This document shows, one piece after another, positions 1 through 30,462 of a stretch of DNA of 64,000 nt. Below the pieces are notes generated by a model. It saw nothing but the letters and a program-made list of their open reading frames with translations. It made no database searches and was not told where the DNA came from. Both the position numbers and the translations under genes were made by a program. This DNA is from Actinomycetes bacterium (GTDB taxonomy: Bacteria > Actinomycetota > Thermoleophilia > BMS3ABIN01), in NCBI GenBank assembly GCA_021785935.1, contig JAJYOG010000001.1, positions 192,743 through 256,742 of the forward strand. Direction: 5' to 3'. The first letter of the stretch is position 1. Each line of letters starts with the position of its first letter.

Positions 1-587
1 AAAAGGTCCGTTATCAACGGATTGTAATCCCGGCCGTGGCCGTTGTGATCTTCATGGGCTTCTTCCTGGAGACATGGCCCCATATGCCTCTGGTCAATCT
101 CGATACGCCTCCTGTTTATGGCGAGATTGCGGCCAGCAAGCTCCCAGGTTCGGTAATCAGCCTTCCATTAGGGTGGATCACTGCCGGCAGAGGATCGATG
201 GGTCAGCCCGCGCCCTTTACCGAGCTCTACCAGACGGTCCACCTCAGGCCGATGGTGGGTGGCGCTGTCAACCGGGCTCCCAGTGAGCTGATCGACTTGA
301 TGACCGGGGCGCCGGTGCTTGCCTTTTTATTCGATCCAGGATCGCCGCCTTCGGAGCGCGACCTCGACCCGCAGGAGATAGTCTTCGCCATCGATAAATA
401 CAAGATAAATTACATCGTCGTTCACAAGCTCTATCCTCGTCAGTATTTTGACAGCACCCTGTCACAAGTCGAGACGGTCATCACACCTGAAACGCTGAAG
501 AACATCGACGCTTACGCGACCAGGAACCTCGGCATGGAAAAATTCGAAGAGACGGATGAGATCGTGGCGTATCGACGTCCGGCTTGA
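1..587 (+). CDS. C-terminal part of a large membrane protein (5' end outside window), paralog of the 11962..13800 product
   Basis: Frame is open from nt 3 to the stop at 585-587. The last ~180 aa align by eye with the C-terminus of 11962..13800 (shared SVIxLPLGW, LYQ, PMVGG, IVVHKL, LGMEKFxET..IVAYRR). Confidence 0.75.
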   Translation, partial: KVRYQRIVIPAVAVVIFMGFFLETWPHMPLVNLDTPPVYGEIAASKLPGSVISLPLGWITAGRGSMGQPAPFTELYQTVHLRPMVGGAVNRAPSELIDLMTGAPVLAFLFDPGSPPSERDLDPQEIVFAIDKYKINYIVVHKLYPRQYFDSTLSQVETVITPETLKNIDAYATRNLGMEKFEETDEIVAYRRPA

Positions 588-638: not shown

Positions 639-682
639 TTCACCTCTTTGTAACAAACCATTCACCCGTTATTAACCTGCGC
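639..682 (+). promoter_or_regulatory. PHO-box-like operator A: four 11-nt direct repeat units
   Basis: TTCACCTCTTT GTAACAAACCA TTCACCCGTTA TTAACCTGCGC, exact 11-nt phasing. It ends ~60 nt upstream of the ATG at 744. Same architecture as the sites at 4139, 5333, 6703 and 11938(-). Confidence 0.6.
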
Positions 683-743
683 AGGCAAGCAACCGTCTAG
701 ACTGATTTTCAACCATACCGCTGAAAGCAGAGGAGCTGGCGAC

Positions 744-998
744 ATGAAAACTGCATTCCTTCCGGCTGAGTCCAGCGCAGATTTTTTGGAAGAGATAAGA
801 CGAAGGGTGATGACGGTTATCACTCAGCAGCCGGGCGTTCCCTTTTCCATTTATTTGCTCGCTGAGATGTTAGGGATTCCGCCGCAATTCATCGAAGCAG
901 CATTTATCGATTTTGAGGGACCTGAAGAATCGCCGCATTTTCCGGGAGCATTACTTCATATGTCCCAGATGAGCAAACAGGTTATTTACCTGCCCTGA
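744..998 (+). CDS. Small (84 aa) winged-helix-like protein of unknown function, paralog 1 of 3
   Basis: ORF with AGAGGAG 9 nt upstream of the ATG. Shares QxPGVP...LAxMLG...QxIEAAxxxxEGP...xIYLP with 4241..4486 and 11576..11836(-). Confidence 0.75.
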   Translation: MKTAFLPAESSADFLEEIRRRVMTVITQQPGVPFSIYLLAEMLGIPPQFIEAAFIDFEGPEESPHFPGALLHMSQMSKQVIYLP

Positions 999-1061
999 TA
1001 CTAATCCAGGCGCCGCCCCGAGAAACTGGAGGGCCGCGTCAGCAGAAAGAAGGGAGCGCAT

Positions 1062-1340
1062 ATGGCTCAGTGTCCGGTATGCAAACGCCACGACATTTTC
1101 CGGGAGCAGACCAGCTACCTGAACATAATCGCCGACCGCTTCTATTTCGACTGCCCTCAATGCGGGGCTTTCATCTTGACGTCGCGGACCAGGAGTCTCG
1201 TAATGGATATGCATCCATCCGGCGTCAAAGAACTGCTCGGATGGATATCGGAGCACAACTCCAGCGGTACAGTGCCAATGGTGAGCGAACATTTCGTGGC
1301 GAGGATAATGAGGGGTTCGAAAGAAAAGGTGCTGCGGTAA
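1062..1340 (+). CDS. Zinc-ribbon protein (92 aa), unknown function
   Basis: Two CxxC pairs (CPVC ... CPQC). The stop abuts the ATG of the next gene at 1341. Confidence 0.65.
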   Translation: MAQCPVCKRHDIFREQTSYLNIIADRFYFDCPQCGAFILTSRTRSLVMDMHPSGVKELLGWISEHNSSGTVPMVSEHFVARIMRGSKEKVLR

Positions 1341-1919
1341 ATGCAAAAGATCAGATTAATAGATGCAACCCTTCGCTCAGGCGAGCGGGCTCCGGAAGCG
1401 CCGTACACCGTCAGGCAGAAACTCATATTCGCCAGGTCTCTGGACTTCCTTGGAATCGATTCGATCGAGGTGGGGCAGCATGAGGTCGAAGCGGCGCTCG
1501 AAACGGGAATCGGCAGAATCGCAGTCTCCCTGGGATCAATCGGACTGCATCCGGTAAGCCTCGTCCGGGCTGCCCTGCGGGTTAATAGCCTGGTCAAACA
1601 GATCACCGATAGCGGCCGAAGGGTCCGTTTTTCCGTAGAAGATGCTACCCGGGCCAACATGAATGTGCTGATCGAGCTTTGTCTGGCTGCTATAGGGGCA
1701 GGCGCTGACTACATCCACGTGATGGTGAACGGACTTGGAAAACGGACCTATATAACTCCGCTTCGCAATCTGGCCTTGGCTCTGAAAGTGCAATACGGTA
1801 TCGATACCGTGACTATGCTCAGCAACGACGAGATCTCGCGCATGGTATCGAAGCTTAGCCGCCCATCATCGCCCGATCTCGCGGTCACCGAGATGGAGAG
1901 AGGCAGGGCCAGTGCCTGA
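1341..1919 (+). CDS. Truncated/degenerate HMGL-like (DRE-TIM metallolyase, homocitrate/isopropylmalate synthase-like) protein
   Basis: N-terminus IRLIDATLRSGERAP resembles the IxDTTLRDGEQ signature with substitutions. The later FSVEDATRA and GADYIHVMVNGLGKR resemble EDAxR and tvnGlGERaGN segments. At 192 aa it is far shorter than a full barrel, and I saw no HxH motif. Confidence 0.6.
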   Translation: MQKIRLIDATLRSGERAPEAPYTVRQKLIFARSLDFLGIDSIEVGQHEVEAALETGIGRIAVSLGSIGLHPVSLVRAALRVNSLVKQITDSGRRVRFSVEDATRANMNVLIELCLAAIGAGADYIHVMVNGLGKRTYITPLRNLALALKVQYGIDTVTMLSNDEISRMVSKLSRPSSPDLAVTEMERGRASA

Positions 1920-3381
1920 CCGAATAATCGCTGTGGCCCTTTTCCTCCTGACGCTGCTTTCGCGCCTGCCGTTCATGACGTCGATGCTTTACGCCTGGGA
2001 CTCCGTGCTTTACGCCAGGGCAATCGACCATTTTGACGTCGCTGCACATCAGCCCCAGCCGCCGGGATACATCTTTTATGTGGGGCTGATCTCGTTTTTC
2101 AACTATATTGTCGGCGACAAGAATGCGGCCATGGTCTTGGTCAGCATGATCTCCTCGGCGGCGGCAGTGGCCTGCCTCTATTGGCTGGGAAGAACCATGT
2201 ATAGCCGGCGGGTCGGCTTGCTGGCCTCACTTTTCCTGCTAACCAGCCTGAGTTATTGGGCTCATAGCGAAGTCGCACTCCCTTACACACTGCTCGGATT
2301 ACTCAGTATTCTCGTTGCCATGCTTGTCTACCGGGTATGGAAAGGAAACGCCGGTTACCTGATTCCCGCAGCGGGCGCGCTGGGGTTGGCGTCAGGGTTT
2401 CGCCCAGACCTGCTGTTTTTCCTTTTGCCACTGTTCGCCATTGGACTTTTCGGTATGCCGCGCCGCCGGAGCGTTCTGTCACTGGTCGTTTTGTCCGGCG
2501 CTGTTCTGTGCTGGTACGTGCCAAGTATATTGCTATCGGGTGGTTATCATGCTTATCAGACGGCCTTGTCGCAGCAGAGCGATTACGTTACCCGGAACGC
2601 GACTTTCATGGGTGTTGACGGTATCGGGGCGATTGTTGCGAATCTGGGTGCCATGGCGCATTTTTTCATCTGGGCCGCTTCAGGAGCCCTACCGCTCACG
2701 GCCGTGTTGGTTTATCGGCTGATGTCACGGCGAGATCCCTTCAGGAGAGACAGGCGCTTTCTTTTCCTGGCCGTCTGGGCTGTTCCCAGTGTGTTATTTT
2801 ACATTTTCATCCACCTGGGAGAGCTCGGCTATATCTTCAGTTTTCTGCCGGCTTTCCTGCTGGCGGCGGTTGCCGCGACCGACGGCCTGTTGAGCAAAAT
2901 CATTGTCCGGCCGGAGCACATTAAAGGCTTCCCACTATTTAGTTATTCCCCGCTTCTGCTGGTAGTCCTCAACCTGGCCATGTTCCTGTTCGTCAGCCCG
3001 AAGTTGAGCGCGAGCAGCCTGGCAAACCGGGACGAGATGCTGCGAACGGAAATCAGCGCCATCCGCGAAAATTTCAATCCAGCCTCCACCATGATCGTTG
3101 CCGTGCAGGATGACCAGCAGGTTTCTTATTACCTTCCGGAATTCCGTCATATCAAGCTGGATCCCATGGTCAAGGAAAATGTGACTCAGCCGCTGCCCGC
3201 CGATGTCAAACAGGTCATCATCTTTGACAAGTACCTCGAATCACCCAGGGGAGAAGCCGGGAAGGTCCTGTCGGTCACCCCCGGCCAGTATCTAAGCTAT
3301 ATCACCAGAGAGCCGCGGCAGAAGTCGATTGCGCTTGATTGGCGTAACAAGAGCGTGACCCTTCTAAGCGAGGCTAAATAA
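1912..3381 (+). CDS. GT-C-fold membrane glycosyltransferase-like protein (PMT_2/DUF2723-like, putative mannosyltransferase)
   Basis: 489 aa polytopic protein. The first loop WDSVLYARAIDHF...HQPQPPGYIFYV resembles the xD/E ... HPPGYP loop of ArnT/PMT/DUF2723 families. GTG start overlaps the upstream gene by 8 nt. Confidence 0.75.
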   Translation: MPDRIIAVALFLLTLLSRLPFMTSMLYAWDSVLYARAIDHFDVAAHQPQPPGYIFYVGLISFFNYIVGDKNAAMVLVSMISSAAAVACLYWLGRTMYSRRVGLLASLFLLTSLSYWAHSEVALPYTLLGLLSILVAMLVYRVWKGNAGYLIPAAGALGLASGFRPDLLFFLLPLFAIGLFGMPRRRSVLSLVVLSGAVLCWYVPSILLSGGYHAYQTALSQQSDYVTRNATFMGVDGIGAIVANLGAMAHFFIWAASGALPLTAVLVYRLMSRRDPFRRDRRFLFLAVWAVPSVLFYIFIHLGELGYIFSFLPAFLLAAVAATDGLLSKIIVRPEHIKGFPLFSYSPLLLVVLNLAMFLFVSPKLSASSLANRDEMLRTEISAIRENFNPASTMIVAVQDDQQVSYYLPEFRHIKLDPMVKENVTQPLPADVKQVIIFDKYLESPRGEAGKVLSVTPGQYLSYITREPRQKSIALDWRNKSVTLLSEAK

Positions 3382-3496
3382 TGAATACCGGGTTAAAGAG
3401 GGAGGTGGCTATCGGGTATAGGGAACAGAAGGCAGATGCTGGTCGTTATTAATCAGGGTTCTTTCAATAAATACGGAAACAGGCAGGAGTAAGAAA

Positions 3497-3988
3497 ATGT
3501 CAGATATTTTACGTCCGAACGAACTTCTTTTCACCAACCAGATGCTCACCTCGATCAATGGCGAGTACCTACTTTTCCTGCAGGAGGACGGCAATATGGT
3601 CCTCTATGAGAAAGTGCATCATGAAGATGGAAGCGTCATGCTGGAAGTGACCTGGGCAACCGAGACCAGCGGCGAGAACTCCTGGTATGCCATCATGCAG
3701 GAAGACGGCAATTTCGTACTCTATGATCTGGAAGGAGTCGCACTCTGGCAGACGGACACAATCGGCAAGCCCGGTTCGTTCCTTCAACTCCAAAATGACG
3801 GCAACCTCGTCATTAACGAAATCTCGCATGCCTGGATGGCTGAAAGCGGGGAGGATGAGGATGAGGAGGATGATGCTGGCGGCGCCGAAGCCATCGATCT
3901 GGCGGAGCAGAACCTGGCCCGGCAGGTGGATGAGGCGCTGGCGGGCGACATGCTGGCGTCATCAGCAGCGTTAGACAAGGAAGACTAG
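3497..3988 (+). CDS. Bulb-type (GNA-like, beta-prism II) mannose-binding lectin domain protein with acidic C-terminal tail
   Basis: Three QxDxNxVxY-type motifs: QEDGNMVLY (aa 29-37), QEDGNFVLY (68-76), QNDGNLVIN (99-107). These are followed by an EDEDEEDD tract. No obvious signal peptide. RBS AGGAG upstream. Confidence 0.85.
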   Translation: MSDILRPNELLFTNQMLTSINGEYLLFLQEDGNMVLYEKVHHEDGSVMLEVTWATETSGENSWYAIMQEDGNFVLYDLEGVALWQTDTIGKPGSFLQLQNDGNLVINEISHAWMAESGEDEDEEDDAGGAEAIDLAEQNLARQVDEALAGDMLASSAALDKED

Positions 3989-4051
3989 GACCGCGATTCA
4001 CTTGGTTGAGATCAAGCACAAGCAAATACCTGTCTAACAACGGTATTAAGG

Positions 4052-4086
4052 GCGGAAGCACCCGGGGGCCATCACGCGAGGCCCCC
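4052..4086 (+). terminator. Rho-independent terminator after the lectin gene
   Basis: CCGGGGGCC - 9 nt loop - GGCCCCCGG, followed by CTTTTTTCTT. Confidence 0.8.
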
Positions 4087-4138
4087 GGCTTTTTTCTTCC
4101 CAAGTCTTCCCCCGCTACCGCTACCGCATATCTCGAAG

Positions 4139-4182
4139 TTCACCTGTTTGTAACAACTTGTTCACCTCTTTGTAACCAAACT
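4139..4182 (+). promoter_or_regulatory. PHO-box-like operator B: four 11-nt direct repeat units
   Basis: TTCACCTGTTT GTAACAACTTG TTCACCTCTTT GTAACCAAACT. It ends ~60 nt upstream of the ATG at 4241. Near-identical to operator A. Confidence 0.6.
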
Positions 4183-4240
4183 ATCCGGTTTTGCAGTCAC
4201 AATGAACACGGACGATCATCAAGCGGGAAAGGAGCCTCTC

Positions 4241-4486
4241 ATGATAGTAGCGCAAAGCAAGACCCTGAGTTATTGTTGGGGGGAGCTTAACGACGAGCTT
4301 TATTACATTCTGAAACAACATCCGGGTGTGCCTTATCGCGTCGGCCGGCTGGCCAGGATGCTGGGCAGGAATGAACTTCAGATCGAAGCGGCGTTGGAGG
4401 AGATCGAGGGGCCGGTGGCTTCAACGGACCCGGGCGCTTTTATCCATATATGGCGTTCCACTGGCGAGGCGATCTATCTCCCGTGA
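4241..4486 (+). CDS. Small (81 aa) winged-helix-like protein, paralog 2 of 3
   Basis: ATG at 4241 preceded by GGAAAGGAG; the track ORF starts at 4202 without an RBS. Family motifs QHPGVP, LARMLG, QIEAALEEIEGP, AIYLP. Confidence 0.75.
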   Translation: MIVAQSKTLSYCWGELNDELYYILKQHPGVPYRVGRLARMLGRNELQIEAALEEIEGPVASTDPGAFIHIWRSTGEAIYLP

Positions 4487-4537
4487 ATCCTCCAGTAACT
4501 CTTGTATACCTGAAAAAGCCGCCTCTGTTAGAATCAG

Positions 4538-5269
4538 ATGATGGATAAACACGAAACAAACCCCGCCCGCATCCTTGTCGTCGAGGACGATGAAGCTATC
4601 CGCGAGGCAATTGTCTTCAATCTCAAGAAGATCGGGTACCGATACCTGGTTGCCGCCAACGGGCTGGAGGGACTGAGGGTTCTGCGCCGGGAACATCCCG
4701 ACCTCATGATCCTCGACCTGATGTTGCCGGAGATGGATGGCTGGAAGCTTTGCGAACAGGCGCGCGAGGAAGGCTTCGACCTTCCCATAATTATCAGTAG
4801 CGCCCGCACCAGCGAGTTCGACAAAGTGCAGGGGCTTTCGATAGGCGCTGACGATTACATCACGAAGCCGTTCGGGATGAGCGAGCTCATGGCCCGGGTC
4901 GAAGCTCATCTGCGCAGGCATCGCCAATCCGTGGCCGGATTGGGCAAATCAGAGCCTCTCAGCTTTGGTCGGCTGACCATCGATCCAGAACGGAAAGAAG
5001 CGTTCGGCGAAGGCCGGCCCCTGGGCCTGACCTCGAAGGAATTCGCGGTCCTTTATCTGCTCGCCCGGGAATCGCCCATCGTCATCTCGCGGGAAGATAT
5101 CTACAAGTCAGTTTGGGGCTATGAGATGCTCCATGGCGACCGCTCGGTCGACGTGTTCATCAGAAGGATTCGGAAGAAGCTTGCCCAGGAATTCGGCGGT
5201 CAGACGTTCCTCCAGACCCATTACGGATTCGGCTACAAGTTCGAAATCAAAGAGTCCACGGACATATAA
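4538..5269 (+). CDS. OmpR/PhoB-family response regulator (PhoB/PhoP-like by context)
   Basis: Receiver domain (ILVVEDD, DLMILDLMLPEMDG, KP) plus a winged-helix output domain (LTSKEFAVLYLL ... GFGYKF). It lies next to the pst operon. Confidence 0.9.
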   Translation: MMDKHETNPARILVVEDDEAIREAIVFNLKKIGYRYLVAANGLEGLRVLRREHPDLMILDLMLPEMDGWKLCEQAREEGFDLPIIISSARTSEFDKVQGLSIGADDYITKPFGMSELMARVEAHLRRHRQSVAGLGKSEPLSFGRLTIDPERKEAFGEGRPLGLTSKEFAVLYLLARESPIVISREDIYKSVWGYEMLHGDRSVDVFIRRIRKKLAQEFGGQTFLQTHYGFGYKFEIKESTDI

Positions 5270-6702: not shown

Positions 6703-6746
6703 TTCACAATTCGTTAACAATTCGTTCACCTGCTGTTAACCTGCCG
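6703..6746 (+). promoter_or_regulatory. PHO-box-like operator D upstream of pstC
   Basis: TTCACAATTCG TTAACAATTCG TTCACCTGCTG TTAACCTGCCG, perfect 11-nt phasing, ~105 nt upstream of the pstC ATG. Confidence 0.6.
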
Positions 6747-6851: not shown

Positions 6852-7829
6852 ATGTCGTCCATAAACAATCTGCGCGATAAGTTTCGTGACGCTTCCCGGC
6901 CCGCACGTGGCCGGCTGGGAGACACTCTTTTCACGGTGATCGCCTTCCTGGCGGCAGCTACGATCATCCTGATCATCACCCTGCTCGTCTACCAGCTGTT
7001 TGAGGGCGCGCTGCCTTCGATAAGGGCGTTCGGAGCCGATTTTTTGTCATCTTCGGAATGGGACCCGGTCAAAGATATTTATGGCGCCCGGGTATTCATC
7101 TACGGAACGATCGTCTCTTCGCTGCTGGCCCTGTTAATGGCGGTTCCGCTCAGTCTCGGCATTGCCATCTACCTTAGCCAGTTTGCCCCCCGCTGGCTGC
7201 GCTCACCGCTGGGATTCATTGTCGAGCTGCTGGCCGCTATCCCCAGTGTTGTTTACGGCCTATGGGGAATATTCGTATTGGCGCCATTCCTGGGTCAAAC
7301 AATTGAGCCTTTTTTCGCCGACCACCTGGGCGGCATACCAATATTCGCCGGCCCGGTCTACGGCGTCGGCCTGTTCGCCGCGGCCGTGGTGCTGGCGATC
7401 ATGATTCTGCCCACGATCTCCGCTATTTCCCGCGAGTCCATGCTCAATGTTTCCAGCGACCAGAAGGAAGCCGCCCAGGCGCTCGGAGCGACCCCCTGGG
7501 AGACGGTGCGCATGTCGGTTCTGCCACTTGCGCGCCCCGGTATCATCGGCGCCATAATTCTGGGACTGGGACGCGCTCTGGGCGAGACCATGGCGGTGAC
7601 CATGATCATAGGCAACAGGCCCGAGATCTCCGCCTCAATTTTCGCGCCCGCCTATACGATTGCCAGCGTCATAGCCAACGAGTTCGCTGAAGTCACGGCC
7701 GGGCTGCACATGGCGGCGCTGGTCGAGCTGGCCTTGATCCTGCTGGTCATCACCTTATTGCTCAACCTGCTCGCGAGGCTGCTGGTTCAGAGAACCGGGA
7801 GCGGAGCACTCAAAAGGAAGCGCTCATGA
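6852..7829 (+). CDS. pstC: Phosphate ABC transporter permease PstC
   Basis: Polytopic permease with an EAAxALGATxWE motif. Operon position. Confidence 0.92.
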   Translation: MSSINNLRDKFRDASRPARGRLGDTLFTVIAFLAAATIILIITLLVYQLFEGALPSIRAFGADFLSSSEWDPVKDIYGARVFIYGTIVSSLLALLMAVPLSLGIAIYLSQFAPRWLRSPLGFIVELLAAIPSVVYGLWGIFVLAPFLGQTIEPFFADHLGGIPIFAGPVYGVGLFAAAVVLAIMILPTISAISRESMLNVSSDQKEAAQALGATPWETVRMSVLPLARPGIIGAIILGLGRALGETMAVTMIIGNRPEISASIFAPAYTIASVIANEFAEVTAGLHMAALVELALILLVITLLLNLLARLLVQRTGSGALKRKRS

Positions 7830-11575: not shown

Positions 11576-11836
11576 CTACGTTATGTAGACCCCCGCATTG
11601 CTGCAGCGGCAGCGATGCACGTAGGCGTCCTGTCCGCCGCCAGCGCTGGTGACCGGCCCCTCGATCGCGAAGAGGGCACGCTCCACCTGTAACGGCGACA
11701 CGCCGGCGATGCTGCCGGCAATGTCATCGACGGACACGGGAACGTTCGGCTGACGCTTCAGGCATTTCAGCACGTCGTTCCGGATCACGTCGAGACAGAC
11801 GGCAGTCCTTGGCGGGATTATCGTGGTTATACTCAT
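11576..11836 (-). CDS. Small (86 aa) winged-helix-like protein, paralog 3 of 3
   Basis: ATG at 11836 preceded by GGAGGTGG; the longer track ORF to 11977 lacks an RBS. Family motifs RQPNVP, QVERALFAIEGP, GVYIT. Confidence 0.7.
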   Translation of the reverse strand: MSITTIIPPRTAVCLDVIRNDVLKCLKRQPNVPVSVDDIAGSIAGVSPLQVERALFAIEGPVTSAGGGQDAYVHRCRCSNAGVYIT

Positions 11837-11938: not shown

Positions 11939-11961
11939 AAAATAATACCTGGCGAATATAC

Positions 11962-13800
11962 TTGATCTACCAACCAAGACACCGGGTTTCTGTGGATTTC
12001 TTTCTGAGGACCAAATTGAGGCGGGGGTTTTCGCTTGCCGTTGCCTACACGGGATTGACGTTCGCCCTTACCTACCCCCTAATTCTGCATTTCTCGACAT
12101 TTTTTGTCGGTGACTCTGAGGACGGGGCTTCATCGGTATGGGCTGTCTGGTGGATGAAATATTCGCTCATGGATTTACATCAGAGCCCGCTGGCCTGCGA
12201 TTACCTTTTCTATCCCTTTGGTGTCAGTCTGACCTATCATCACATGCCAAAGGTGATGGGTCTGATCAGCATTCCTTTCCAGTACATTTTCGGGCTTACC
12301 GCCGCCTACAATCTTTTATTTGTGGGCACCTTCGTCGCAACAGGGCTGACGACCTACTGGCTTGTGCGCCGGCTAACGGGCGAACGGCTGCCGGCATTTC
12401 TGGCCGGCGCCATCTTTGCCTTCGCGCCGTTCCGGTGGGGTCAACAATCACATATCGCTCTTTTATCAACGATGATGATACCGGTCTATTTCGCGCTCCT
12501 GTTCCAGGGGATGGACGCACTTGCCGAGAGCGGCCGGCGTGCCTGGAAATATTTTGTCCTGGCGGGAGTCGCGTTGGCGATGGCTGCCTACGATACCGAA
12601 CAATACGTAATTTTCCTTTTGCCGCTGACCGCGTTGTTTGCGGTATTTTTTTTCCCACTTCGCTGGAACCGGGAAGAATTTAAAAAATGGTTCCGGCTGC
12701 TGACGGGATTGGGGATCGCTGGTCTCACCGCGGCCCTGTTATATTCCCCGATATTTTTTACCGCTCTCTCGGAGATGAAATCCCAGGGAGACTTTGTCAC
12801 GTTTCCCTTGGGTGTCAGCTGGCCCGGAGCCGATCTTCTCTCCTTTTTTGTGCCGCAGGGAACATTTGCTTTCCTGGGATCGACCTTTGACAAGTTTACC
12901 CAGAGCTTTTCTCCCGCTGAAACAACCTATTTTGGCTGGACGGCGCTGACGCTGGCCGCAATCGGTGTAGTTACCCACGTCAGGAGCAGGAAGGTCTGGT
13001 TCTGGACGGCAACCGCGGTAATCTTTTCAGCCCTGGCGCTGGGCCCGTATCCGATTATCAACGGCAGCGTCCTCAGTATTCGCGGCCCTTACATCCTTAT
13101 CACAAAAATACCTTTTATTAATGAGGGAAGGGCTCCCGGCCGTTTTGCCCTGCTCGCCATGCTGGCCATTGCGGTACTGGCCGGTTACGGCGCCAGCGCC
13201 CTTTTGCGTCAATTCAGGAAAGACAGGAAAGGGCGCATGGCGGCTTCTATCGTGTGTGCTGTCCTGCTACTGGCAGTCTGCGTGGAGTTCAAGCCTTCAG
13301 TGACCTTGACCTCTAACGAATCACCGGATATCTACGAGGAAATCGCCGCTTCCGGCACTCAGGGTTCTGTCATTGATCTGCCGCTGGGATGGGAGAGCGG
13401 CAACCTCACGACCGGCACCGAAAAAACGTTTGTTCAGCTCTACCAGCCAATTCATCAAAAGCCGATGGTCGGCGGTTTTGTCTCGAGAACACCGATGGAA
13501 GTTGTCATGCGCGGCCTGTATACCCCGGTAATTGACTATCTGGTCAAACCGGATCAGCCTGAGCCATCGGCTCCGGATGTGAACCCGGCAGCTATTTCTC
13601 GAGTTATGGACGAGTACCAGATAGCATTCATCGTCGTTCATAAGCTGGGGCCTGAAACAATAGCGCGCGGGACTGACTATCATGTGGATTCCGGCCTCTC
13701 ACCCACGGCTATCAACAATGTTGATAAATATGTCACCACCTGGCTGGGAATGGAAAAATTCGCGGAGACGGAAGACATCGTTGCCTATAGAAGGCGTTAA
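11962..13800 (+). CDS. Large polytopic membrane protein, GT-C-like (uncharacterised); paralog of the gene ending at 587
   Basis: 612 aa with many TM helices and a soluble C-terminal domain homologous to 1..587. Start uncertain (TTG 11962 or GTG 11992). Confidence 0.7.
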   Translation: MIYQPRHRVSVDFFLRTKLRRGFSLAVAYTGLTFALTYPLILHFSTFFVGDSEDGASSVWAVWWMKYSLMDLHQSPLACDYLFYPFGVSLTYHHMPKVMGLISIPFQYIFGLTAAYNLLFVGTFVATGLTTYWLVRRLTGERLPAFLAGAIFAFAPFRWGQQSHIALLSTMMIPVYFALLFQGMDALAESGRRAWKYFVLAGVALAMAAYDTEQYVIFLLPLTALFAVFFFPLRWNREEFKKWFRLLTGLGIAGLTAALLYSPIFFTALSEMKSQGDFVTFPLGVSWPGADLLSFFVPQGTFAFLGSTFDKFTQSFSPAETTYFGWTALTLAAIGVVTHVRSRKVWFWTATAVIFSALALGPYPIINGSVLSIRGPYILITKIPFINEGRAPGRFALLAMLAIAVLAGYGASALLRQFRKDRKGRMAASIVCAVLLLAVCVEFKPSVTLTSNESPDIYEEIAASGTQGSVIDLPLGWESGNLTTGTEKTFVQLYQPIHQKPMVGGFVSRTPMEVVMRGLYTPVIDYLVKPDQPEPSAPDVNPAAISRVMDEYQIAFIVVHKLGPETIARGTDYHVDSGLSPTAINNVDKYVTTWLGMEKFAETEDIVAYRRR

Positions 13801-13803
13801 GGG

Positions 13804-15306
13804 ATGGCCCTCATGATAAATAAAACAAAAAAAGTTTTAGCCGGCGCAGCCATTTCGCTCACCCTGCCGGCTCTACTAACCCTGCTGGCTCTGATATCCA
13901 TGACAGGCTGCTCGAGCGACACGTCAACAGGGGACCTCAGCCAGGAAAAGATTGCCTATATCGCCGACGACGGCTCATCGGGATCGGTCAGGTTCAACCC
14001 TGTTGATGGAGGCGCTTCTCATGGTGTTTTGCAGTGGGCGGGACTCGGCGAGCGGCTGACATTTTCCGGCGACGGTAAATATTTCGCCCTTTCTCTTGGC
14101 GACAAGAAAGAGACAATGCATTCGCTAATCGCGGCGACGGACGGCAGTGCCGCCTGGCACTTGCCCCGCACGGCAGTCAGGCCCAGCTTTTCTCCCGACG
14201 GTACCAAGGTGGCTTTCACCACGCGCTCTGCCGGCAGCGGAACCGGTGGCGACGGAGCCAGCCGGGCCGGGGTGCTCGACCTGACAACAGGGAAGCTGCA
14301 ATTCCTGGTGGATGGCGTCAATCTCGATAACGCCTCCTGGATCGATAACAGTACTTTCATCTATGACAACACCGGCGGGCAGGTGAACAAGGTTGATATC
14401 GAGACGGGCGAGAAAATCCAGCTGACTCCGGCCGGCATGCAGTTTACTTCGTATTCGTATCCTGTAAGCTACATCCGCAAGAAGCTGGTGTTGACTCAAT
14501 TTGGCGATCTTTACCAGCACAATATCTGGAGCCTCGATCTTGAGAGCGGAGCGTTGAGGAAAATAACCGCGAACGAGCTTTTCCATTACCGGGCCGGTTA
14601 TCTTCCCGGTAGCAATGACATTCTGTTTACGGAACAGCAGTTTGGAGACCGGTTCACATCCGAGCTGTGTCAGATCTCAGATGACGGCAGTTTTTTCAGG
14701 ATGCTGACATCCGACTTTGATTACGACGGGACGCAAACGGTATCTCCGTCCAGCGGGAAACTGGCTTACAAACATACGGACCAGGTGGAAAATGCTTCCT
14801 GGGAATTCATGCCGGGGAAGGTGAAAGTTACCAAACCGACGACAACAGGCAGTTCGATCTGGGTGATCAACCCGGATGGGACCGGCAGAACACAGATTGC
14901 CGGGTCCGATACGGACTCACTGTCTGACCCGTGCTTCGTGACGGCGCCAGGGTGGAACAGCGTCAATCCCCTGAAGCTTTCAGTCGCCGGGGGTCCATCA
15001 GGCAGCGATTCCTTTACGGTGACGATCGAAAATCCGGGGAGTGTCAGTATCGATTCTGTTTTGAGGGCGCTACCGGGCGCGGACCTCAAGCTGTCTTCGA
15101 TGAACGGCTCCGAACCCGAAGCGGCGACTGACGGTCCGGCCGGGCAGTTACAATGGCGCCTTGAGCTTGGGCCGGGTGAAAAACGGGAAATCAATCTCAG
15201 CGTCGACGTCAATAAATCCAACGGTGCCGGCGATCTTGCCACCATGCTCTTCACGCTGAACGTCGACGGGGCTTTTCCGTTGATGTATTGGCAGGATTGC
15301 GGCTAA
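13804..15306 (+). CDS. Lipoprotein with TolB-like (PD40) beta-propeller repeats
   Basis: Signal peptide plus lipobox (SMTGC). FSPDGTKVAFT-type PD40 motifs. 3-nt gap after the upstream gene. Confidence 0.75.
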   Translation: MALMINKTKKVLAGAAISLTLPALLTLLALISMTGCSSDTSTGDLSQEKIAYIADDGSSGSVRFNPVDGGASHGVLQWAGLGERLTFSGDGKYFALSLGDKKETMHSLIAATDGSAAWHLPRTAVRPSFSPDGTKVAFTTRSAGSGTGGDGASRAGVLDLTTGKLQFLVDGVNLDNASWIDNSTFIYDNTGGQVNKVDIETGEKIQLTPAGMQFTSYSYPVSYIRKKLVLTQFGDLYQHNIWSLDLESGALRKITANELFHYRAGYLPGSNDILFTEQQFGDRFTSELCQISDDGSFFRMLTSDFDYDGTQTVSPSSGKLAYKHTDQVENASWEFMPGKVKVTKPTTTGSSIWVINPDGTGRTQIAGSDTDSLSDPCFVTAPGWNSVNPLKLSVAGGPSGSDSFTVTIENPGSVSIDSVLRALPGADLKLSSMNGSEPEAATDGPAGQLQWRLELGPGEKREINLSVDVNKSNGAGDLATMLFTLNVDGAFPLMYWQDCG

Positions 15307-15367: not shown

Positions 15368-16105
15368 TTATCCCAGCAGCAGCGCCGCTCCCAGCATCAG
15401 GGCGAAACCGGCGGTAAAGGCCAACGGAACGCTGTAATCACGCCAGTTGGTTTCGTGGGCCACGGGCAGCAGGTCGCTGGTGGATATATATAGGAAGGTT
15501 CCGGCGGAGAGGCCAATGCCGACACCGAGCACCACATCGCTGGCTCCGGAGAAAAACAGGCCTACGATCGCTCCCACCACCGCCATCAGCGCCAGCACCA
15601 TCAACACCCGCCACGCCTTCATTCGCCTGTAACCGCAGGAGAGCATGACTCCCGCCACCGAGACACCACTGGGGAAACTGTGCGCCAGCACCGCGAAGGC
15701 GACCACGAGGCCGAGGGATGCCCGGGCTTCACCGCTGACAGCAATCGAGAAGCCATCGAGCATGGTATGGAAACCGATGCCGACCAGGGCGAAAAAACCA
15801 AAGGGATGCACCCGGCAACCCTGCTCTCGGCAGGCGTGGACCATGGTCACCTTTTCGATCATGTACAGAAGAACGAAACCGACGCTCACGCCGATAACGG
15901 CGCTGCCCTCCGCGAGTTTGAAGCTTTCCGGAAACATGTCGTTGATGCCCGCCGAAAGCAGCACGCCCGCCGAGAATGCCACCAGCAGCGAGATTCCCCG
16001 TTCGCTCAGTTGCTTGCGCGCCAACGGCAGGCTGCCGCCGGCAATGGTGAAAACGGCCGCGAGTGAGGCCAGGAGCAGGCTTGTGAGAGAAGAGGACATA
16101 ATCAA
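15368..16105 (-). CDS. ZIP-family divalent metal transporter (ZupT-like)
   Basis: 8-TM protein with HSFPSGVSV (the HNxPEG equivalent) and GFHTMLDG motifs. Confidence 0.8.
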   Translation of the reverse strand: MIMSSSLTSLLLASLAAVFTIAGGSLPLARKQLSERGISLLVAFSAGVLLSAGINDMFPESFKLAEGSAVIGVSVGFVLLYMIEKVTMVHACREQGCRVHPFGFFALVGIGFHTMLDGFSIAVSGEARASLGLVVAFAVLAHSFPSGVSVAGVMLSCGYRRMKAWRVLMVLALMAVVGAIVGLFFSGASDVVLGVGIGLSAGTFLYISTSDLLPVAHETNWRDYSVPLAFTAGFALMLGAALLLG

Positions 16106-16546: not shown

Positions 16547-17149
16547 CTATGCCCATGCCAGGAATAGTGACCAGCCGAGGCCCATCGCCAGGCCGACGAA
16601 AGTGCCCGCGGCGACATCCGAAGGATAATGAACGCCGACGTACACCCGCGTCCAGGAAATGATCAGCGCCAGTGCGAAAAACAGATACCAGAGAGACGGA
16701 TGAAAATAGGTGAAAACGGTCGCGGCGGCAAAGGACATTGACGCGTGCGATGAGGGAAAGGATTTGCTGGAAGGAACGCCCACCAGCGGCCCCAGCGCCG
16801 GTTCATCGAAGACCGGCCGATCGCGCCGCAGAGCCGATTTGACGGCGTAGTTTACAACCAGGGTCGTATAGACCGCGACCGGGATCATGATGGCCATCGC
16901 CCGGCCGTTATTGGCGCCGCTTAAAAAGAAGACCAACGCCAGGCCCAGCCAGAAAAGTCCCCAGTTCCCGCTCACGGAAAGGACTTTTAGGATCATCTCC
17001 AGCGGCTGAAAATGGAAACGGGTTCTGAGCGCGACGAACAGGCGGCAGTCCAGCCCGGGCCTTTCACTGGTATCTTGAATGTGATCCATGGGCGGGTTCA
17101 CTTCGTTCCCGGCCTTTTCGCGAGGTCCTGCCTCTGTATCGTGGTTCAA
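16547..17149 (-). CDS. PAP2-family phosphatase (undecaprenyl-diphosphatase/phosphatidic acid phosphatase-like)
   Basis: The three PAP2 motifs: KxxxxRxRP (KSALRRDRP), PSSH (FPSSHAS), SRxxxxxHxxxD (TRVYVGVHYPSDV). Confidence 0.85.
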   Translation of the reverse strand: MNHDTEAGPREKAGNEVNPPMDHIQDTSERPGLDCRLFVALRTRFHFQPLEMILKVLSVSGNWGLFWLGLALVFFLSGANNGRAMAIMIPVAVYTTLVVNYAVKSALRRDRPVFDEPALGPLVGVPSSKSFPSSHASMSFAAATVFTYFHPSLWYLFFALALIISWTRVYVGVHYPSDVAAGTFVGLAMGLGWSLFLAWA

Positions 17150-21129: not shown

Positions 21130-21426
21130 AAGTTGGCCTCCTCGGCAACAGATAGATGCAGAATTTTCTCGTACTTTCGCGTTTTCCCGCGAGGGGCGCT
21201 GTTCAAACACGGGGGGGACTCGAAGGGATAAAAAAGGCGAAAAAATAATAAACGAGTCGTAGGTCTCAAGCTTCCGATTTAAGAAACAGCAGACATGCGG
21301 AGGGAGGAAAAAGGAATGCGTTTGTTGGAAAAAGTGAGTTTCTTGGGAAAATTAACTGAATTCGCCGAAAAAAAGTTTTGTTTTCGTCACCCGTATATTT
21401 TTCTCCGCAGAAGCGGAGAAACCAGT

Positions 21427-23590
21427 GTTTCAATCCTTGTTCTAATGGATCATCCTCGTTGGCCCGACCATCTTGTCGGCTTCCCAGTGACGGTAAGCTT
21501 GTTTCAATCCTTGTTCTAATGGATCATCCTCGTTGGCGTGCCTCAAGATGCTCAGGATTCACACAAGCACGATGTTTCAATCCTTGTTCTAATGGATCAT
21601 CCTCGTTGGCTCTCCAAGGCTCGAACGCTGCTGTTCCCCCAGGCTTGTTTCAATCCTTGTTCTAATGGATCATCCTCGTTGGCTTTTTACCTTGGATATT
21701 CGGAGCGGAAAGCATTTTGCGTTTCAATCCTTGTTCTAATGGATCATCCTCGTTGGCAGATTTGCATACCACCGTTTTAAGACCTCCTAAACAGTGTTTC
21801 AATCCTTGTTCTAATGGATCATCCTCGTTGGCTGGACCCTGTGCCGGATGCGATCTACAAAGCTATGACGTTTCAATCCTTGTTCTAATGGATCATCCTC
21901 GTTGGCGCGAGCTGGTAATAATCGATGATCTGGCAACCGTCAGTTTCAATCCTTGTTCTAATGGATCATCCTCGTTGGCGTAACGCGCTCTTCCGGGACG
22001 CGCCGGAGGTCCTTGTTTCAATCCTTGTTCTAATGGATCATCCTCGTTGGCCCAAGCAGGTTGAGGACGATGATCTGCTTGTCATGTGGTTTCAATCCTT
22101 GTTCTAATGGATCATCCTCGTTGGCTAGCCACGAGTTGTCATCGCGGTAGATTCCGCTGGGAGTTTCAATCCTTGTTCTAATGGATCATCCTCGTTGGCC
22201 GATCGCGTTTGCCAACCAGAAGTGGAAGGACATCGGTTTCAATCCTTGTTCTAATGGATCATCCTCGTTGGCCGCTCCCAAATGAGCTTCTTGAGGTCGG
22301 CGAGGTCGGGTTTCAATCCTTGTTCTAATGGATCATCCTCGTTGGCTGCTCATTGCAATTACCGCCAACGCGACAATTGCCTGTTTCAATCCTTGTTCTA
22401 ATGGATCATCCTCGTTGGCCAACCCTGCGAAAAAACAGTACACGTGTGACTGGTTGTTTCAATCCTTGTTCTAATGGATCATCCTCGTTGGCCCGAACTA
22501 GCCGCGCTCAAAAATGATATTGAGGAAAGTTTCAATCCTTGTTCTAATGGATCATCCTCGTTGGCAGAAAGTAAAAAAAGACTAGAGGCTATTACGCTTC
22601 TGGTTTCAATCCTTGTTCTAATGGATCATCCTCGTTGGCAATTGCATCTGCCGACTATCGAATCTCAATTGTCTGGGTTTCAATCCTTGTTCTAATGGAT
22701 CATCCTCGTTGGCCAGAGCCAGAGAAGCCAGTCCCCCTCTGCCTACCGGGTTTCAATCCTTGTTCTAATGGATCATCCTCGTTGGCCCACCGCCTGCCAG
22801 CTACAGGCAGGCCAGGAAATGTGTTTCAATCCTTGTTCTAATGGATCATCCTCGTTGGCGCTTTACCGCATTCCCGAAATTCTTCCCCATAGGCGGTTTC
22901 AATCCTTGTTCTAATGGATCATCCTCGTTGGCCCGGTCTTGCTGTCGTATTTCTCGATGACACCGGGTTTCAATCCTTGTTCTAATGGATCATCCTCGTT
23001 GGCTTTTGTTCTTGGCAATGGGTTGCTCAACAGCTCAGGTTTCAATCCTTGTTCTAATGGATCATCCTCGTTGGCTTATTGCGACCTTTTTCACCTTTCC
23101 CCTCCCCAAGAGTGTTTCAATCCTTGTTCTAATGGATCATCCTCGTTGGCACGGATTCGATGCCCGCTTCCAGGCTGTCAAAAAAAGTTTCAATCCTTGT
23201 TCTAATGGATCATCCTCGTTGGCGTAATCGCTATTCTCATGCCCCGCCGTATGATGCAGAGTTTCAATCCTTGTTCTAATGGATCATCCTCGTTGGCCAG
23301 CGGCCCAGTGCTATGTAACGCCGCCGTTCTAATGTTTCAATCCTTGTTCTAATGGATCATCCTCGTTGGCCCCGCCGTAACCGGCGGGTATTGATTGCCC
23401 TGTTTTGTTTCAATCCTTGTTCTAATGGATCATCCTCGTTGGCCCAGACAAAATAAACTGAGTGGCAAAGGTATGACGGTTTCAATCCTTGTTCTAATGG
23501 ATCATCCTCGTTGGCATCGCGGTAGTCACAGCAGCGAAGAGGTATTTGCAGGAGTTTCAATCCTTGTTCTAATGGATCATCCTCGTTGGC
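21427..23590 (-). CRISPR. CRISPR array: 30 identical 37-nt repeats, 29 spacers of 34-38 nt
   Basis: Plus-strand repeat is GTTTCAATCCTTGTTCTAATGGATCATCCTCGTTGGC, with starts at 21427, 21501, 21574 ... 23554. The reverse complement ends in ATTGAAAC, so transcription is inferred on the minus strand, co-oriented with the cas genes. Confidence 0.98.
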
Positions 23591-23762: not shown

Positions 23763-24389
23763 CTAAACGCAAATATTTCTATAACAACAGTCGTGGCATC
23801 GAACCCTATATTTCGTCCTGGCTGGTAGACAACAAGTTTCTACTATCGAAAATATCTTGTCAACGACACCGCGCGCCTCACGCTCAACGTCATTATTAAC
23901 AGCCACTTCGATTAATTTGCTGCCTTCACGCACGTAAGCCAAGAATCCGCGCGTTACAGGCCGGTCATAGGACTTGCGAACAAGAAGGCTGTATAGAACG
24001 ATCTGAATCCGATGCGTTCGGAATGCCATATCCCGATATGGCGTATATTTATAATCCAAAGGAGCAAGGCTTCCATCCTCAAGAGTAAGGACTTCATCTA
24101 CGATTCCGCGCACCTTCATCTCCGGCGACGCCAAATATACATTCAGGCTTCTACCCGTAGCCCCAATTTTTTTCCTCAAATATTCACGATTTTCATTTGT
24201 CCTTCTTTTATGGACCTCCCGGCCTTTGAGTACTTTATAGCGATTGTCTTCGTGTTGAGGAATCTCCAGGCATCTCATGAAATAGATGAAGCGGGGACAA
24301 TATATGTACTCGATCACCTCCGACGGGGTGATCATTGGCGTTGCCTCGGTATCGTCTCTCGAAAGCGCGGCCTTTATTGGTTCAACCAT
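23763..24389 (-). CDS. cas4: CRISPR-associated exonuclease Cas4
   Basis: N-terminal Cys (YCPRFIYF), RecB motif DEV...PLDYKYT, and a C-terminal CxxCxxxxxC cluster (CHDCCYRNIC). The start may instead be the internal ATG (MITPSE). Confidence 0.9.
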   Translation of the reverse strand: MVEPIKAALSRDDTEATPMITPSEVIEYIYCPRFIYFMRCLEIPQHEDNRYKVLKGREVHKRRTNENREYLRKKIGATGRSLNVYLASPEMKVRGIVDEVLTLEDGSLAPLDYKYTPYRDMAFRTHRIQIVLYSLLVRKSYDRPVTRGFLAYVREGSKLIEVAVNNDVEREARGVVDKIFSIVETCCLPARTKYRVRCHDCCYRNICV

Positions 24390-24407
24390 TACGTTGTCCG
24401 TAAAAAA

Positions 24408-24713
24408 TCATGTTATGAGCGCCCGAATTTCATCTGTAACAAGTTTCTTATCAAACGCCTGCCCCTGTAGAATCACTTTGTGAAAATCCTGTTCGCACAT
24501 GGGAAAGATATACACCTTGTCAGTTTCCTCATCGATTTGGTCTTCGATGGTCATGGATAGCTCATCCAGACGGTTGCGTTCGATGGTCCCCAGGAAGACG
24601 GATTTCTGGACGCGATAAAGTCCGGCGTCCTTGCAATGCTTCGCAACCCGCGCACGCGGCCGGTTTTCAGAGATGTCATAGATGATCCAGACGAGCTGGT
24701 CGGTTTTTTTCAC
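24408..24713 (-). CDS. cas2: CRISPR-associated endoribonuclease Cas2
   Basis: 101 aa. IIYDISENRPRARVAKHCKDAGLYRVQKSVFLG is typical of Cas2. Confidence 0.92.
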   Translation of the reverse strand: MKKTDQLVWIIYDISENRPRARVAKHCKDAGLYRVQKSVFLGTIERNRLDELSMTIEDQIDEETDKVYIFPMCEQDFHKVILQGQAFDKKLVTDEIRALIT

Positions 24714-24716
24714 GGC

Positions 24717-25688: not shown

Positions 25689-25750
25689 GCTGTTTCCGAT
25701 CCTTGATTGATATTGCGGCCTTTCTTCCGAACGCAAAGAAGTTTTCCATA

Positions 25751-28725: not shown

Positions 28726-28750
28726 GTGTCTGACTCAGTTTAAACCAAGA

Positions 28751-30444: not shown

Positions 30445-30462
30445 AGTTTTATCACCTTATCC

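Follow-up and report, generated by a model that had tools for sequence, protein, structure and literature searches.

The locus examined here raises the question of whether a short run of genes lying next to a phoP–pst locus encodes a phosphate-controlled glycan pathway or a looser set of functions. It lies in a stretch of 64,000 nt (the window, meaning the whole of the DNA analyzed) on contig JAJYOG010000001.1 of assembly GCA_021785935.1, positions 192,743–256,742 of the forward strand, from an Actinomycetes bacterium (Thermoleophilia; BMS3ABIN01). Coordinates are window positions, and L001–L025 are labels for the loci of relatives, the nearest named relatives being metagenome-assembled genomes (MAGs) of Thermoleophilia (Actinomycetota). 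Positions 639–4098 hold five open reading frames (ORFs), all in the same direction on the + strand, namely those for a small protein (small1), a zinc-ribbon (Zn-ribbon) protein, an HMGL-like protein, a GT-C glycosyltransferase and a lectin. The original prediction, made from the sequence alone, read the last four as a glycan module that would link phosphate starvation to envelope glycosylation. The view to which the present analysis leads us, and which we hold with modest confidence, is that 639–4098 is one co-oriented unit, an accessory Pho-regulon operon that is evolutionarily labile and whose products mostly work independently of one another.

The evidence for phosphate control lies in the promoter. 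As had been predicted, a PHO box made of four direct repeats in 11-nt phase (TTCACC, GTAACA, TTCACC, and TTAACC) stands at 639..677 on the + strand, and a putative −10-like hexamer, TAGACT (TANNNT; 698..703, +), recognized by its sequence only, follows 20 nt past the fourth repeat. When the 64 kb and 100 shuffles of it were scanned for four KTHACM units in 11-nt phase with ≤2 mismatches, the window gave five matches and the shuffles none. The five comprise four boxes on the + strand and one match that overlaps the pstC box. The four boxes precede small1 (639), small2 (4139), pstS (5333), and pstC (6703), with ≤1 mismatch in the 24 specified positions and none in the small1 box. A weaker fifth box, fitting 21 of 24 positions, is found on the − strand at 11949, upstream of the p86 gene and downstream of the histidine kinase gene. 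At four of these five boxes (small1, pstS, pstC, and p86) a TANNNT hexamer occurs exactly 20 nt after the box (TAGACT, TAATGT, TAGCTT, and TATCAT, respectively), and the small2 box has a spacing of 19 nt and the hexamer CACAAT (TACAAT in L011). The spacing from box to hexamer in relatives agrees with that of the window. The small1 promoter therefore combines the features by which Pho promoters are recognized, having at least two direct repeats resembling GTTCACC/TTNACA at 11-nt phase and a box that takes the −35 place with constant spacing to the −10, as in the pst promoters of the same genome. The window consensus also matches the repeat unit G(G/T)TCAYYYR(G/C)G that makes up, as 11-nt direct repeats, the PHO box of Streptomyces PhoP (PMC2275107).

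This design is conserved in approximately ten related Thermoleophilia loci. The small1 box is nearly identical in L001, L003, L011, L014, L017, L019, and L025, with ~95% identity among loci whose coding sequences have dS values of 0.3–1.7. In L001 and L025, small1 has been cleanly deleted and the box, −10, and ribosome binding site (RBS) are joined to the spacer between small1 and the Zn-ribbon gene, where the PHO-box promoter is the only recognizable promoter for the Zn-ribbon, HMGL-like and GT-C genes. The small1 promoter is built like those of pstS and pstC and is retained among relatives, so that the proposed link of the unit to phosphate is well supported by the promoter sequences. A literature search on phosphate responses in Thermoleophilia returned nothing specific. 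As a separate observation, the PHO box and −10 at 6703–6741 lie within the ~300-nt pstS–pstC spacer and are kept in L001, L003, L007, L011, L014, and L017; pstCAB–phoU may have a PhoP-dependent promoter of its own besides that of pstS.

The genes behind the first PHO box are packed in the manner of an operon, and the positions, spacings and overlap originally given for four of them are exact on the + strand. The box is followed by small1 (744..998, +; 84 aa) and, after a spacer of 63 nt, by the Zn-ribbon gene (1062..1340, +; 92 aa), whose TAA directly abuts the ATG at 1341 of the HMGL-like gene (1341..1919, +; 192 aa). The latter overlaps the GT-C gene (1912..3381, +; 489 aa) by 8 nt (1912–1919), and a gap of 115 nt separates GT-C from the lectin gene (3497..3988, +; 163 aa). 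Each of the five genes is preceded by a Shine-Dalgarno-like sequence. An intrinsic terminator at 4062..4098 (+) closes the unit, with a 9-bp GC stem followed by U6 (hairpin at ~4062–4092, T-run to 4098; fold z-score −2.8). It is the sole strong terminator of the unit, as had been stated, but it lies slightly to the right of the 4052–4086 first assigned to it. Beyond it, a second PHO box (4139..4177, +) heads the operon of small2 and the response regulator (RR; 4538–5269, called PhoP from context) and forms the downstream boundary of the module.

All four of the ORFs in the original prediction are conserved in relatives with dN/dS of 0.17–0.29, and are for this reason taken as real genes. Antisense ORFs at 951–1346 and 1157–1660 (− strand) were treated as spurious, as they overlap + strand genes under purifying selection. 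The domain calls likewise stand: in Pfam, the HMGL-like model is matched in three fragments with 72.8 bits (gathering threshold, GA, 29), the PMT_2 match has 36.1 bits (GA 26.1), and B_lectin, at 31.0 bits just under its GA of 32.4, is backed by phmmer. The membership of the unit was right as far as the operon-like packing goes, but it was incomplete, since small1 is a fifth gene and p65, once present where the 115-nt spacer now precedes the lectin gene, was a sixth ancestral one.

The position of the module was next compared among relatives. In all 13 related loci with downstream DNA it lies upstream of the RR gene and of small2, or of a chimeric gene that replaces small2, and pstSCAB–phoU and the histidine kinase gene were seen to follow phoP in eight of the 13. 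Upstream, mgtE/Nramp genes, divergent in orientation, are present in the six relatives with enough upstream DNA. Both flanks (mgtE/Nramp and small2–RR–pstSCAB–phoU–histidine kinase) are seen in L001, L003, L005/6, L007, L016, and L017. In L011 and L014 only the downstream flank is seen, and L020 shows it up to the RR. In L025 the RR gene is followed by a histidine kinase gene on the opposite strand and not by pst. As the gene combination is kept in relatives, the possibility raised with the original prediction that it is not conserved does not hold.

Gene content is far less constant than position. Losses were mapped by blastn against L010, the most complete locus, together with inspection of the junctions. 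L010 encodes the Zn-ribbon protein, an HMGL-like protein of 315 aa, a GT-C of 521 aa, p65, and the lectin, and L025 is near complete (Zn-ribbon, HMGL-like of 312 aa, GT-C of 525 aa, p67, and lectin). The ancestral order was small1–Zn-ribbon–homocitrate synthase (HCS)-like–GT-C–p65–lectin, the HCS-like gene being that of the HMGL-like protein. The p65/p67 proteins, encoded between GT-C and the lectin, are acidic, Trp/Tyr-rich and 65–67 aa long, carry MELVWLSGWYDPELIDFWEEF...GGGFYRV, and have a dN/dS of ~0.28; intact genes occur at L010 2679–2876, L011 1805–2002, L014 2011–2208, and L025 3123–3326, and also in L017. From the L010/L025 baseline, the window has undergone two in-frame deletions in the HMGL-like gene and the deletion of p65, of which the last ~24 nt survive at the start of the stretch 3401..3496 (+), followed by the conserved p65–lectin spacer and the lectin RBS. 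This remnant is colinear with L010 2853–2954, with an alignment score of 50 against a shuffle maximum of 29.

Other relatives have been reduced in other ways, with at least seven independent deletions in sister lineages. In L001, small1, p65, and the lectin gene are deleted and GT-C is kept. L003 has lost GT-C, with the HMGL-like protein fused to the C-terminus of p65, and in L011 only the last codons of GT-C remain. L014 holds N- and C-terminal remnants of GT-C with large internal deletions (1663–1824) between the HMGL-like and p65 genes. L017 has no called GT-C gene between HMGL-like and p65, where the gap measures 266 nt (7463–7727) and was not inspected for remnants. The HMGL-like and p65 genes are both absent from L007, L016, and L020; in L007 only 2 nt separate the stop of the Zn-ribbon gene from the start of GT-C, so that coupling is kept though the HMGL-like gene is absent. 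L025 lacks small1 and contains, at 4141–4494, a 117-aa chimeric ORF joining the N-terminus of small2 to a second copy of lectin subdomains II–III and an acidic tail. The ORF follows the small2 PHO box, and its chimeric make-up again points to recombination at this locus.

These patterns bear directly on the integrated form of the glycan module, in which GT-C would install a mannose-containing, phosphate-free envelope glycan, the lectin would read or organize it, the Zn-ribbon and HMGL-like proteins would be required cofactors, and the product would replace phosphate-rich wall polymers. We consider this unlikely. The ancestral locus did hold all of the genes in one tight unit (L010, L025), but the lectin is kept without GT-C in four lineages (L003, L011, L014, and L017), GT-C is kept without the lectin in one (L001), and the L007/L016/L020 lineage does without the HMGL-like protein. 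That the parts are individually dispensable weighs against an obligate multi-step pathway. GT-C belongs to the PMT_2/DUF2723 clan, whose characterized members include mannosyltransferases (PMC10214176), the lectin has canonical mannose-type motifs, and switching of wall polymers driven by PhoP is known (PMC6232261; PMC3479208); against this, the HMGL-like protein is catalytically dead, no sugar-donor, flippase, polymerase or nucleotide-sugar gene is present in the module, and one GT-C adds single residues and builds no replacement polymer. The claim of a single pathway of four genes was accordingly abandoned in favor of an operon with largely independent products, and mannose specificity and the replacement of wall polymers are retained only as suggestions.

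Within this labile operon, GT-C is a polytopic glycosyltransferase (PMT_2/DUF2723-like) with a C-terminal beta-rich domain. A sequence search against the PDB gave no match, and its fold was for this reason established through an AF2 model (pLDDT 94.1, pTM 0.93) and Foldseek. The top 42 PDB matches of the model are all GT-C enzymes, with ALG9, AglB/STT3/PglB, ArnT, DPY19, Pmt4, AftA, Emb, and AftD among the matches, at E-values of 1e-7 to 1e-4 and TM ~0.5; identity to every solved GT-C is 11–16%. A GT-C_A fold is predicted with confidence from the model. D30, P48, G52, R164, and G211 (the PPGY motif included) are invariant in 72 homologs of 21–78% identity, Asp30 lying in the first extracytoplasmic loop in the motif YAWDS, and dN/dS is 0.17. 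The protein does not belong to the GT39 Pmt enzymes, as neither PF02366 nor a MIR domain is matched; in addition, its loop 1 has WDS and not DE, and the Foldseek alignments to Pmt1/2/4 span only ~270 columns. PF11028 (DUF2723/TMEM260-like) scores 17.3 bits against a GA of 24.2 on the window protein, and several homologs have precomputed PF11028 matches; a literature search on DUF2723 in bacteria found nothing specific. The GT-C_A fold and the invariant Asp in the first outer loop are held in common with the three-component Gtr and CsbB–GtcA–YfhO systems and with ArnT, PglB/STT3, ALG9, and Pmt, but the window protein differs in its C-terminal beta domain, its lack of MIR and its lack of a Pfam PMT match.

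Paralogs of GT-C with 56–58% identity are found outside the Pho locus (L009 and L024), and the L009 copy (58%) adjoins a GT2 enzyme. A GT2 beside a GT-C is the classical arrangement of a polyprenyl-phosphate-sugar synthase with its GT-C. Given this and the membership of the family, a polyprenyl-phosphate sugar supplied in trans would fit as the donor. Neither a GT2 synthase nor a small flippase was found beside GT-C, in the module itself or in those flanking genes that were examined. Overall, the donor and acceptor of GT-C, like the ligand and location of the lectin discussed below, are what we infer from sequence relationships.

The lectin is a leaderless, single-domain B-lectin (beta-prism II) in which a domain of ~112 aa is followed by a polyacidic tail of ~50 residues. 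Its phmmer matches to PDB lectins range from 2e-20 (pyocin L2) through 1e-14 (Mycobacterium smegmatis lectin, MSL) to 1e-8, with the garlic and snowdrop lectins also matched and the C-terminal domain of pyocin L1/L2 included. The three subdomain motifs are QEDGNMVLY, QEDGNFVLY, and QNDGNLVIN. Sites I and II are canonical, and site III has N for Y, Tyr always being missing there in the orthologs compared. QxDxNxVxY is matched at site I by the window protein and six orthologs compared, whereas L025 has QADGDMVLY (Asn to Asp). Binding of mannose is suggested by these motifs. The tail contains 18 Asp and Glu against 2 Lys and Arg in the window, and 18–23 Asp/Glu with 1–4 Lys/Arg in six full-length orthologs compared, and is conserved in composition more than in sequence. 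Counted together, seven orthologs keep both the motifs and the tail. Full-length orthologs with acidic tails were found only in metagenome contigs and in Thermoleophilia/Actinobacteria MAGs, and every ortholog looked up sits in a phoP-linked locus.

As the best PDB and NCBIfam matches of the lectin are pyocin L1/L2 and putidacin L1, a role in competition was considered, in which it would be an LlpB-type bacteriocin released under phosphate starvation so that relatives are killed and their nutrients become available, with GT-C and perhaps p65 protecting the producer through modification of its surface receptor for the lectin. Such a role seems improbable. The window protein shares with LlpA (pyocin L1/L2, putidacin L1), LlpB, and MSL the beta-prism II B-lectin domain and sites of the QxDxNxVxY type; it lacks the LlpA tandem of two B-lectin domains (putidacin L1 model 92.6 bits against a cut-off of 275), and MSL (MSMEG_3662), in contrast, is fused to LysM. 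To our knowledge, LlpA and LlpB are also without a signal peptide. LlpA has two lectin domains, the N-terminal one interacting with BamA of diderm bacteria, LlpB is a single B-lectin with a C-terminal extension of ~32 aa that is basic and aromatic, and neither requires an immunity gene (PMC6465234). The window lectin resembles LlpB, so described, in being a single domain with a C-terminal extension, but its tail of ~50 aa is strongly acidic and its host is an actinobacterium. Gene gain, gene loss and recombination are frequent at the locus, as loci of antagonism typically show, with lectin duplication and a chimera in L025, yet the lectin has a dN/dS of 0.18 with no sign of diversifying selection, it persists without GT-C or p65, and no match to PADLOC models or toxin domains was obtained.

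The HMGL-like protein has changed most in the window. It is homologous to the isopropylmalate synthase (IPMS) and HCS families, matching their NCBIfam models at 1e-24 to 1e-28, and its homologs, of 279–315 aa, are closest to archaeal-type HCS, all without accessory and regulatory domains. A relative of 296 aa (P0007) matches Sulfolobus HCS 6ktq, the closest PDB entry, at 2.9e-52, and the HMGL-like branch comprises seven clusters. Compared with these homologs, the window protein has two in-frame deletions of 31 and 56 aa, together 87 barrel residues, and the beta-strands bearing DTxG and HxH are lost with them. In the first motif LRSGER stands in place of LREGEQ, with Ser at the first metal ligand, and none of the three ligands of the metal triad (Glu/Asp of LR(D/E)GEQ plus HxH) is left. 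The full triad is present in one of the eight HMGL-like variants examined (L010), the other seven lacking at least one ligand. The AF2 model of the window protein, of low confidence (pLDDT 59.5), still best resembles HCS and has 6–7 beta/alpha units, a complete (beta/alpha)8 barrel not being found in it. The 'mini' aldolase-fold protein of the original prediction is thus HMGL-like by homology, but it is a deletion derivative of a protein of 280–315 aa with no metal ligands and not a designed small domain. It shows clear sequence homology to the DRE-TIM metallolyases (HCS, IPMS, and citramalate synthase, CimA), and differs from them in missing the beta/alpha units that bear HxH and DTxG and in having no accessory or regulatory domain.

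Since none of the three metal ligands remains, the protein cannot be an aldolase or synthase. It is nevertheless under selection. Its dN/dS is ~0.27–0.29 (pairwise 0.25–0.38), with ω ~0.27 for the window branch by a three-taxon decomposition of pairwise distances; for comparison, the RR and pstS give 0.07–0.10. On these values, and with deletions that are in frame, a neutral pseudogene was rejected. An assembly artifact was also rejected, as the 192-aa gene model is identical on independent contigs from different samples. We therefore read it, from its sequence, as a pseudoenzyme with a TIM-barrel remnant kept for a non-catalytic role, and its probable partner is the Zn-ribbon protein, with which it is coupled in translation. 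A literature search on HCS/IPMS pseudoenzymes found nothing specific.

The extent of loss might instead suggest that the whole locus is a non-functional relic of an older operon, perhaps one for a Pho-controlled organic-acid synthase and accessory genes, in the course of removal by deletion bias. The repeated independent deletions, the remnants of GT-C in L014 and of p65 in the window, and the damaged active site in seven of eight HMGL-like variants, with the 87 residues gone from the window copy, are what such decay would leave. The surviving ORFs, however, are in frame with dN/dS of 0.17–0.29, the window branch of the HMGL-like gene included, the start/stop coupling is kept even where the HMGL-like gene is gone (L007), and the PHO box is strongly conserved, so that we regard a relic as quite unlikely.

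The Zn-ribbon gene is the only module gene kept in every related locus. Its product has a CPxC...CPxCG motif and a C-terminal region of ~55 aa, with C4, C7, C31, and C34 invariant in six orthologs and a dN/dS of 0.25, and by sequence prediction it is without a signal peptide or transmembrane (TM) segment. Pfam and NCBIfam searches gave only sub-threshold matches to generic Zn-ribbons, and a PDB profile search gave only a hint at E~1 to RpoM, which was not used as evidence. Relatives were found in two species in a scan of 185,579 GTDB representative genomes, and in three full-length clusters among 1.84 billion representative proteins. With so narrow a distribution, guilt by association outside the clade is impossible.

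The first gene of the unit, small1, is one of three paralogs of 81–86 aa, the others being small2 (4241–4486, +) and p86 (11576–11836, −). They have in common the motifs PGVP...LA.M.G...IE.A...EGP...IYLP, and p86 matches a small1/small2 profile with an hhalign probability of 97.7%. A separate four-repeat PHO box stands immediately upstream of each of the three genes, an arrangement kept in relatives with long enough contigs. Pfam and NCBIfam searches of small1, small2, p65, and p86 gave no significant match, and a PDB profile search of the paralogs gave only matches at E~1 to HTH regulators, which were not used as evidence.

A number of points weigh against a single phosphate-controlled operon, and co-transcription and induction by phosphate starvation are themselves deduced from sequence. 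A GC-rich hairpin without a U-tract (1009..1040, +) in the spacer 3′ of small1 could attenuate read-through, and is found at the same position in the window, L014, L003, L011, and L001. The 115-nt spacer before the lectin gene has an A/T-rich −10-like sequence and could hold a promoter of its own. The RR scores below the NCBIfam cut-off for PhoB (191 against 296 bits), and owes the name PhoP to its context. Every gene except that of the Zn-ribbon protein is dispensable in some relative, and a gene for donor synthesis is absent from the module. Lastly, the lectin, Zn-ribbon, HMGL-like, and p65 proteins are without a signal peptide or TM segment, so that an envelope role for the lectin would need non-classical export.

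The first two of these points are the basis of a further alternative, in which only small1 is under phosphate control, the hairpin terminates its transcript, and the Zn-ribbon–HMGL-like–GT-C genes and the lectin gene have their own phosphate-independent promoters. To the conserved position of the hairpin in the 63-nt spacer may be added a sigma-70-like match at 3355–3382, upstream of the lectin gene, and the stronger constraint on small1 (dN/dS 0.09) than on the genes downstream. However, the hairpin was rejected as a clear terminator, as it lacks a U-tract, has a z-score of only −0.4 to −1.1 and is no more stable than shuffled sequence, and it is absent in L007. No promoter-like element is conserved between small1 and the Zn-ribbon gene, and in L001 and L025, which lack small1, the PHO-box promoter stands directly before the Zn-ribbon gene. 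Control of small1 only is consequently given little credence here.

Under the favored reading of a labile Pho-regulon operon with largely independent products, phosphate limitation would lead the PhoP-type RR, encoded 550 nt downstream, to bind the four 11-nt repeats in the −35 position and activate the promoter, the same box design presumably serving small2–phoP, pstS, pstC, and p86. GT-C would act on the extracytoplasmic side with Asp30 as catalytic residue, taking a polyprenyl-phosphate sugar made elsewhere in the genome and decorating an envelope acceptor during phosphate starvation. The leaderless lectin, with its mannose-type sites and polyacidic tail, would bind a glycan containing hexose or deoxyhexose. 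The HCS-like protein, catalytically dead and under selection, would probably do non-enzymatic work with the Zn-ribbon protein. A far more speculative idea, to which we attach very little weight, is that the lectin, made leaderless under PhoP control, serves the cell wall as a phosphate-free protein polyanion, its mannose-type sites docking on wall glycans (those added by GT-C enzymes among them) and its Asp/Glu tail supplying the negative, cation-binding charge for which phosphate-rich polymers are normally responsible, with the linked possibility that the Zn-ribbon protein and the dead HCS barrel form a new non-catalytic phosphate-starvation factor; if true, the tail would be a protein analog of the switch from teichoic to teichuronic acid.

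A mobile element or horizontally acquired island was rejected, as the GC content matches that of the flanks, genes for an integrase or transposase are missing, and synteny at this position holds in all relatives. A defense system is unlikely, because the PADLOC defense models gave no match when compared with all module proteins. Elsewhere in the window, a CRISPR array of ~28 units (21426–23447; ~37-nt repeat GTTTCAATCCTTGTTCTAATGGATCATCCTCGTTGGC) lies beside a type I-B-like cas operon (23763–32436, −) encoding Cas4, Cas1, Cas6b, Cas3, Cas5, Cas7, and Cas8b/TM1802. Upstream of the module, positions 36–587 (+) encode p198, the C-terminal part of a tandem duplicate split by a frameshift (p309 plus p198) of a 601-aa polytopic membrane protein, the intact copy of which lies just upstream of the window. 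Counterparts occur in L005 (5160–6965, 7154–8083, and 8080–8676), a 604-aa protein is found at the same position in L007 and L016, and none in L001, L003, and L017; Pfam and NCBIfam searches with the 601-, 309-, and 198-aa proteins gave no significant match. On the far side of the Pho locus, 11962–15306 (+), 15368–16105 (−), and 16547–17149 (−) encode a 612-aa DUF6541-like membrane protein, a 500-aa PD40-repeat protein, a ZIP transporter and a PAP2 phosphatase, and PAP2, YjbQ, and ZIP neighbors recur in relatives.

Remodeling of the envelope under the Pho regulon has precedent, since PhoP activates both SCO4873–4881 of Streptomyces coelicolor, a cluster for cell-wall or extracellular polymer that includes the membrane glycosyltransferase SCO4874, the GtrB-like SCO4875, and the GtrA-like SCO4876 (PMC3479208), and the teichuronic-acid operon tuaA–H of Bacillus subtilis (PMC6232261). 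The window unit has in common with the former an actinobacterial host, a PhoP-type regulator acting on 11-nt repeats and a polytopic membrane glycosyltransferase turned on, as predicted here, at phosphate limitation; the likeness of GT-C to SCO4874 is one of general description. It differs in lacking a GtrB-type synthase, a GtrA flippase and polysaccharide genes, in adding the lectin, the Zn-ribbon protein and the dead HCS-like protein, and in being fused to the phoP–pst locus. With tuaA–H, where phosphorylated PhoP activates envelope glycopolymer genes at low phosphate, it shares the type of box (TT(A/C/T)ACA-like hexamers at ~11-nt phase), whereas tua is a complete pathway for an anionic polymer made up of non-homologous proteins and the window unit, with its single transferase, cannot make a polymer.

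The practical impact of these findings is limited, given that the module occurs only in a narrow clade of uncultured organisms and that every gene but that of the Zn-ribbon protein is dispensable in some relative. The PHO-box/−10 architecture could nonetheless be used to predict Pho regulons in MAGs of Thermoleophilia. The HMGL-like proteins of these close relatives form a series from intact, through active-site mutated and internally deleted yet selected, to absent, which could serve for the study of the origin and loss of pseudoenzymes. Should phosphate control be confirmed, the theme of PhoP-directed envelope remodeling known from Bacillus and Streptomyces would extend to the deep-branching and almost unstudied Thermoleophilia, with a set of genes new to that theme, namely a GT-C, a pseudoenzyme, and a lectin that has an acidic tail but no leader peptide.

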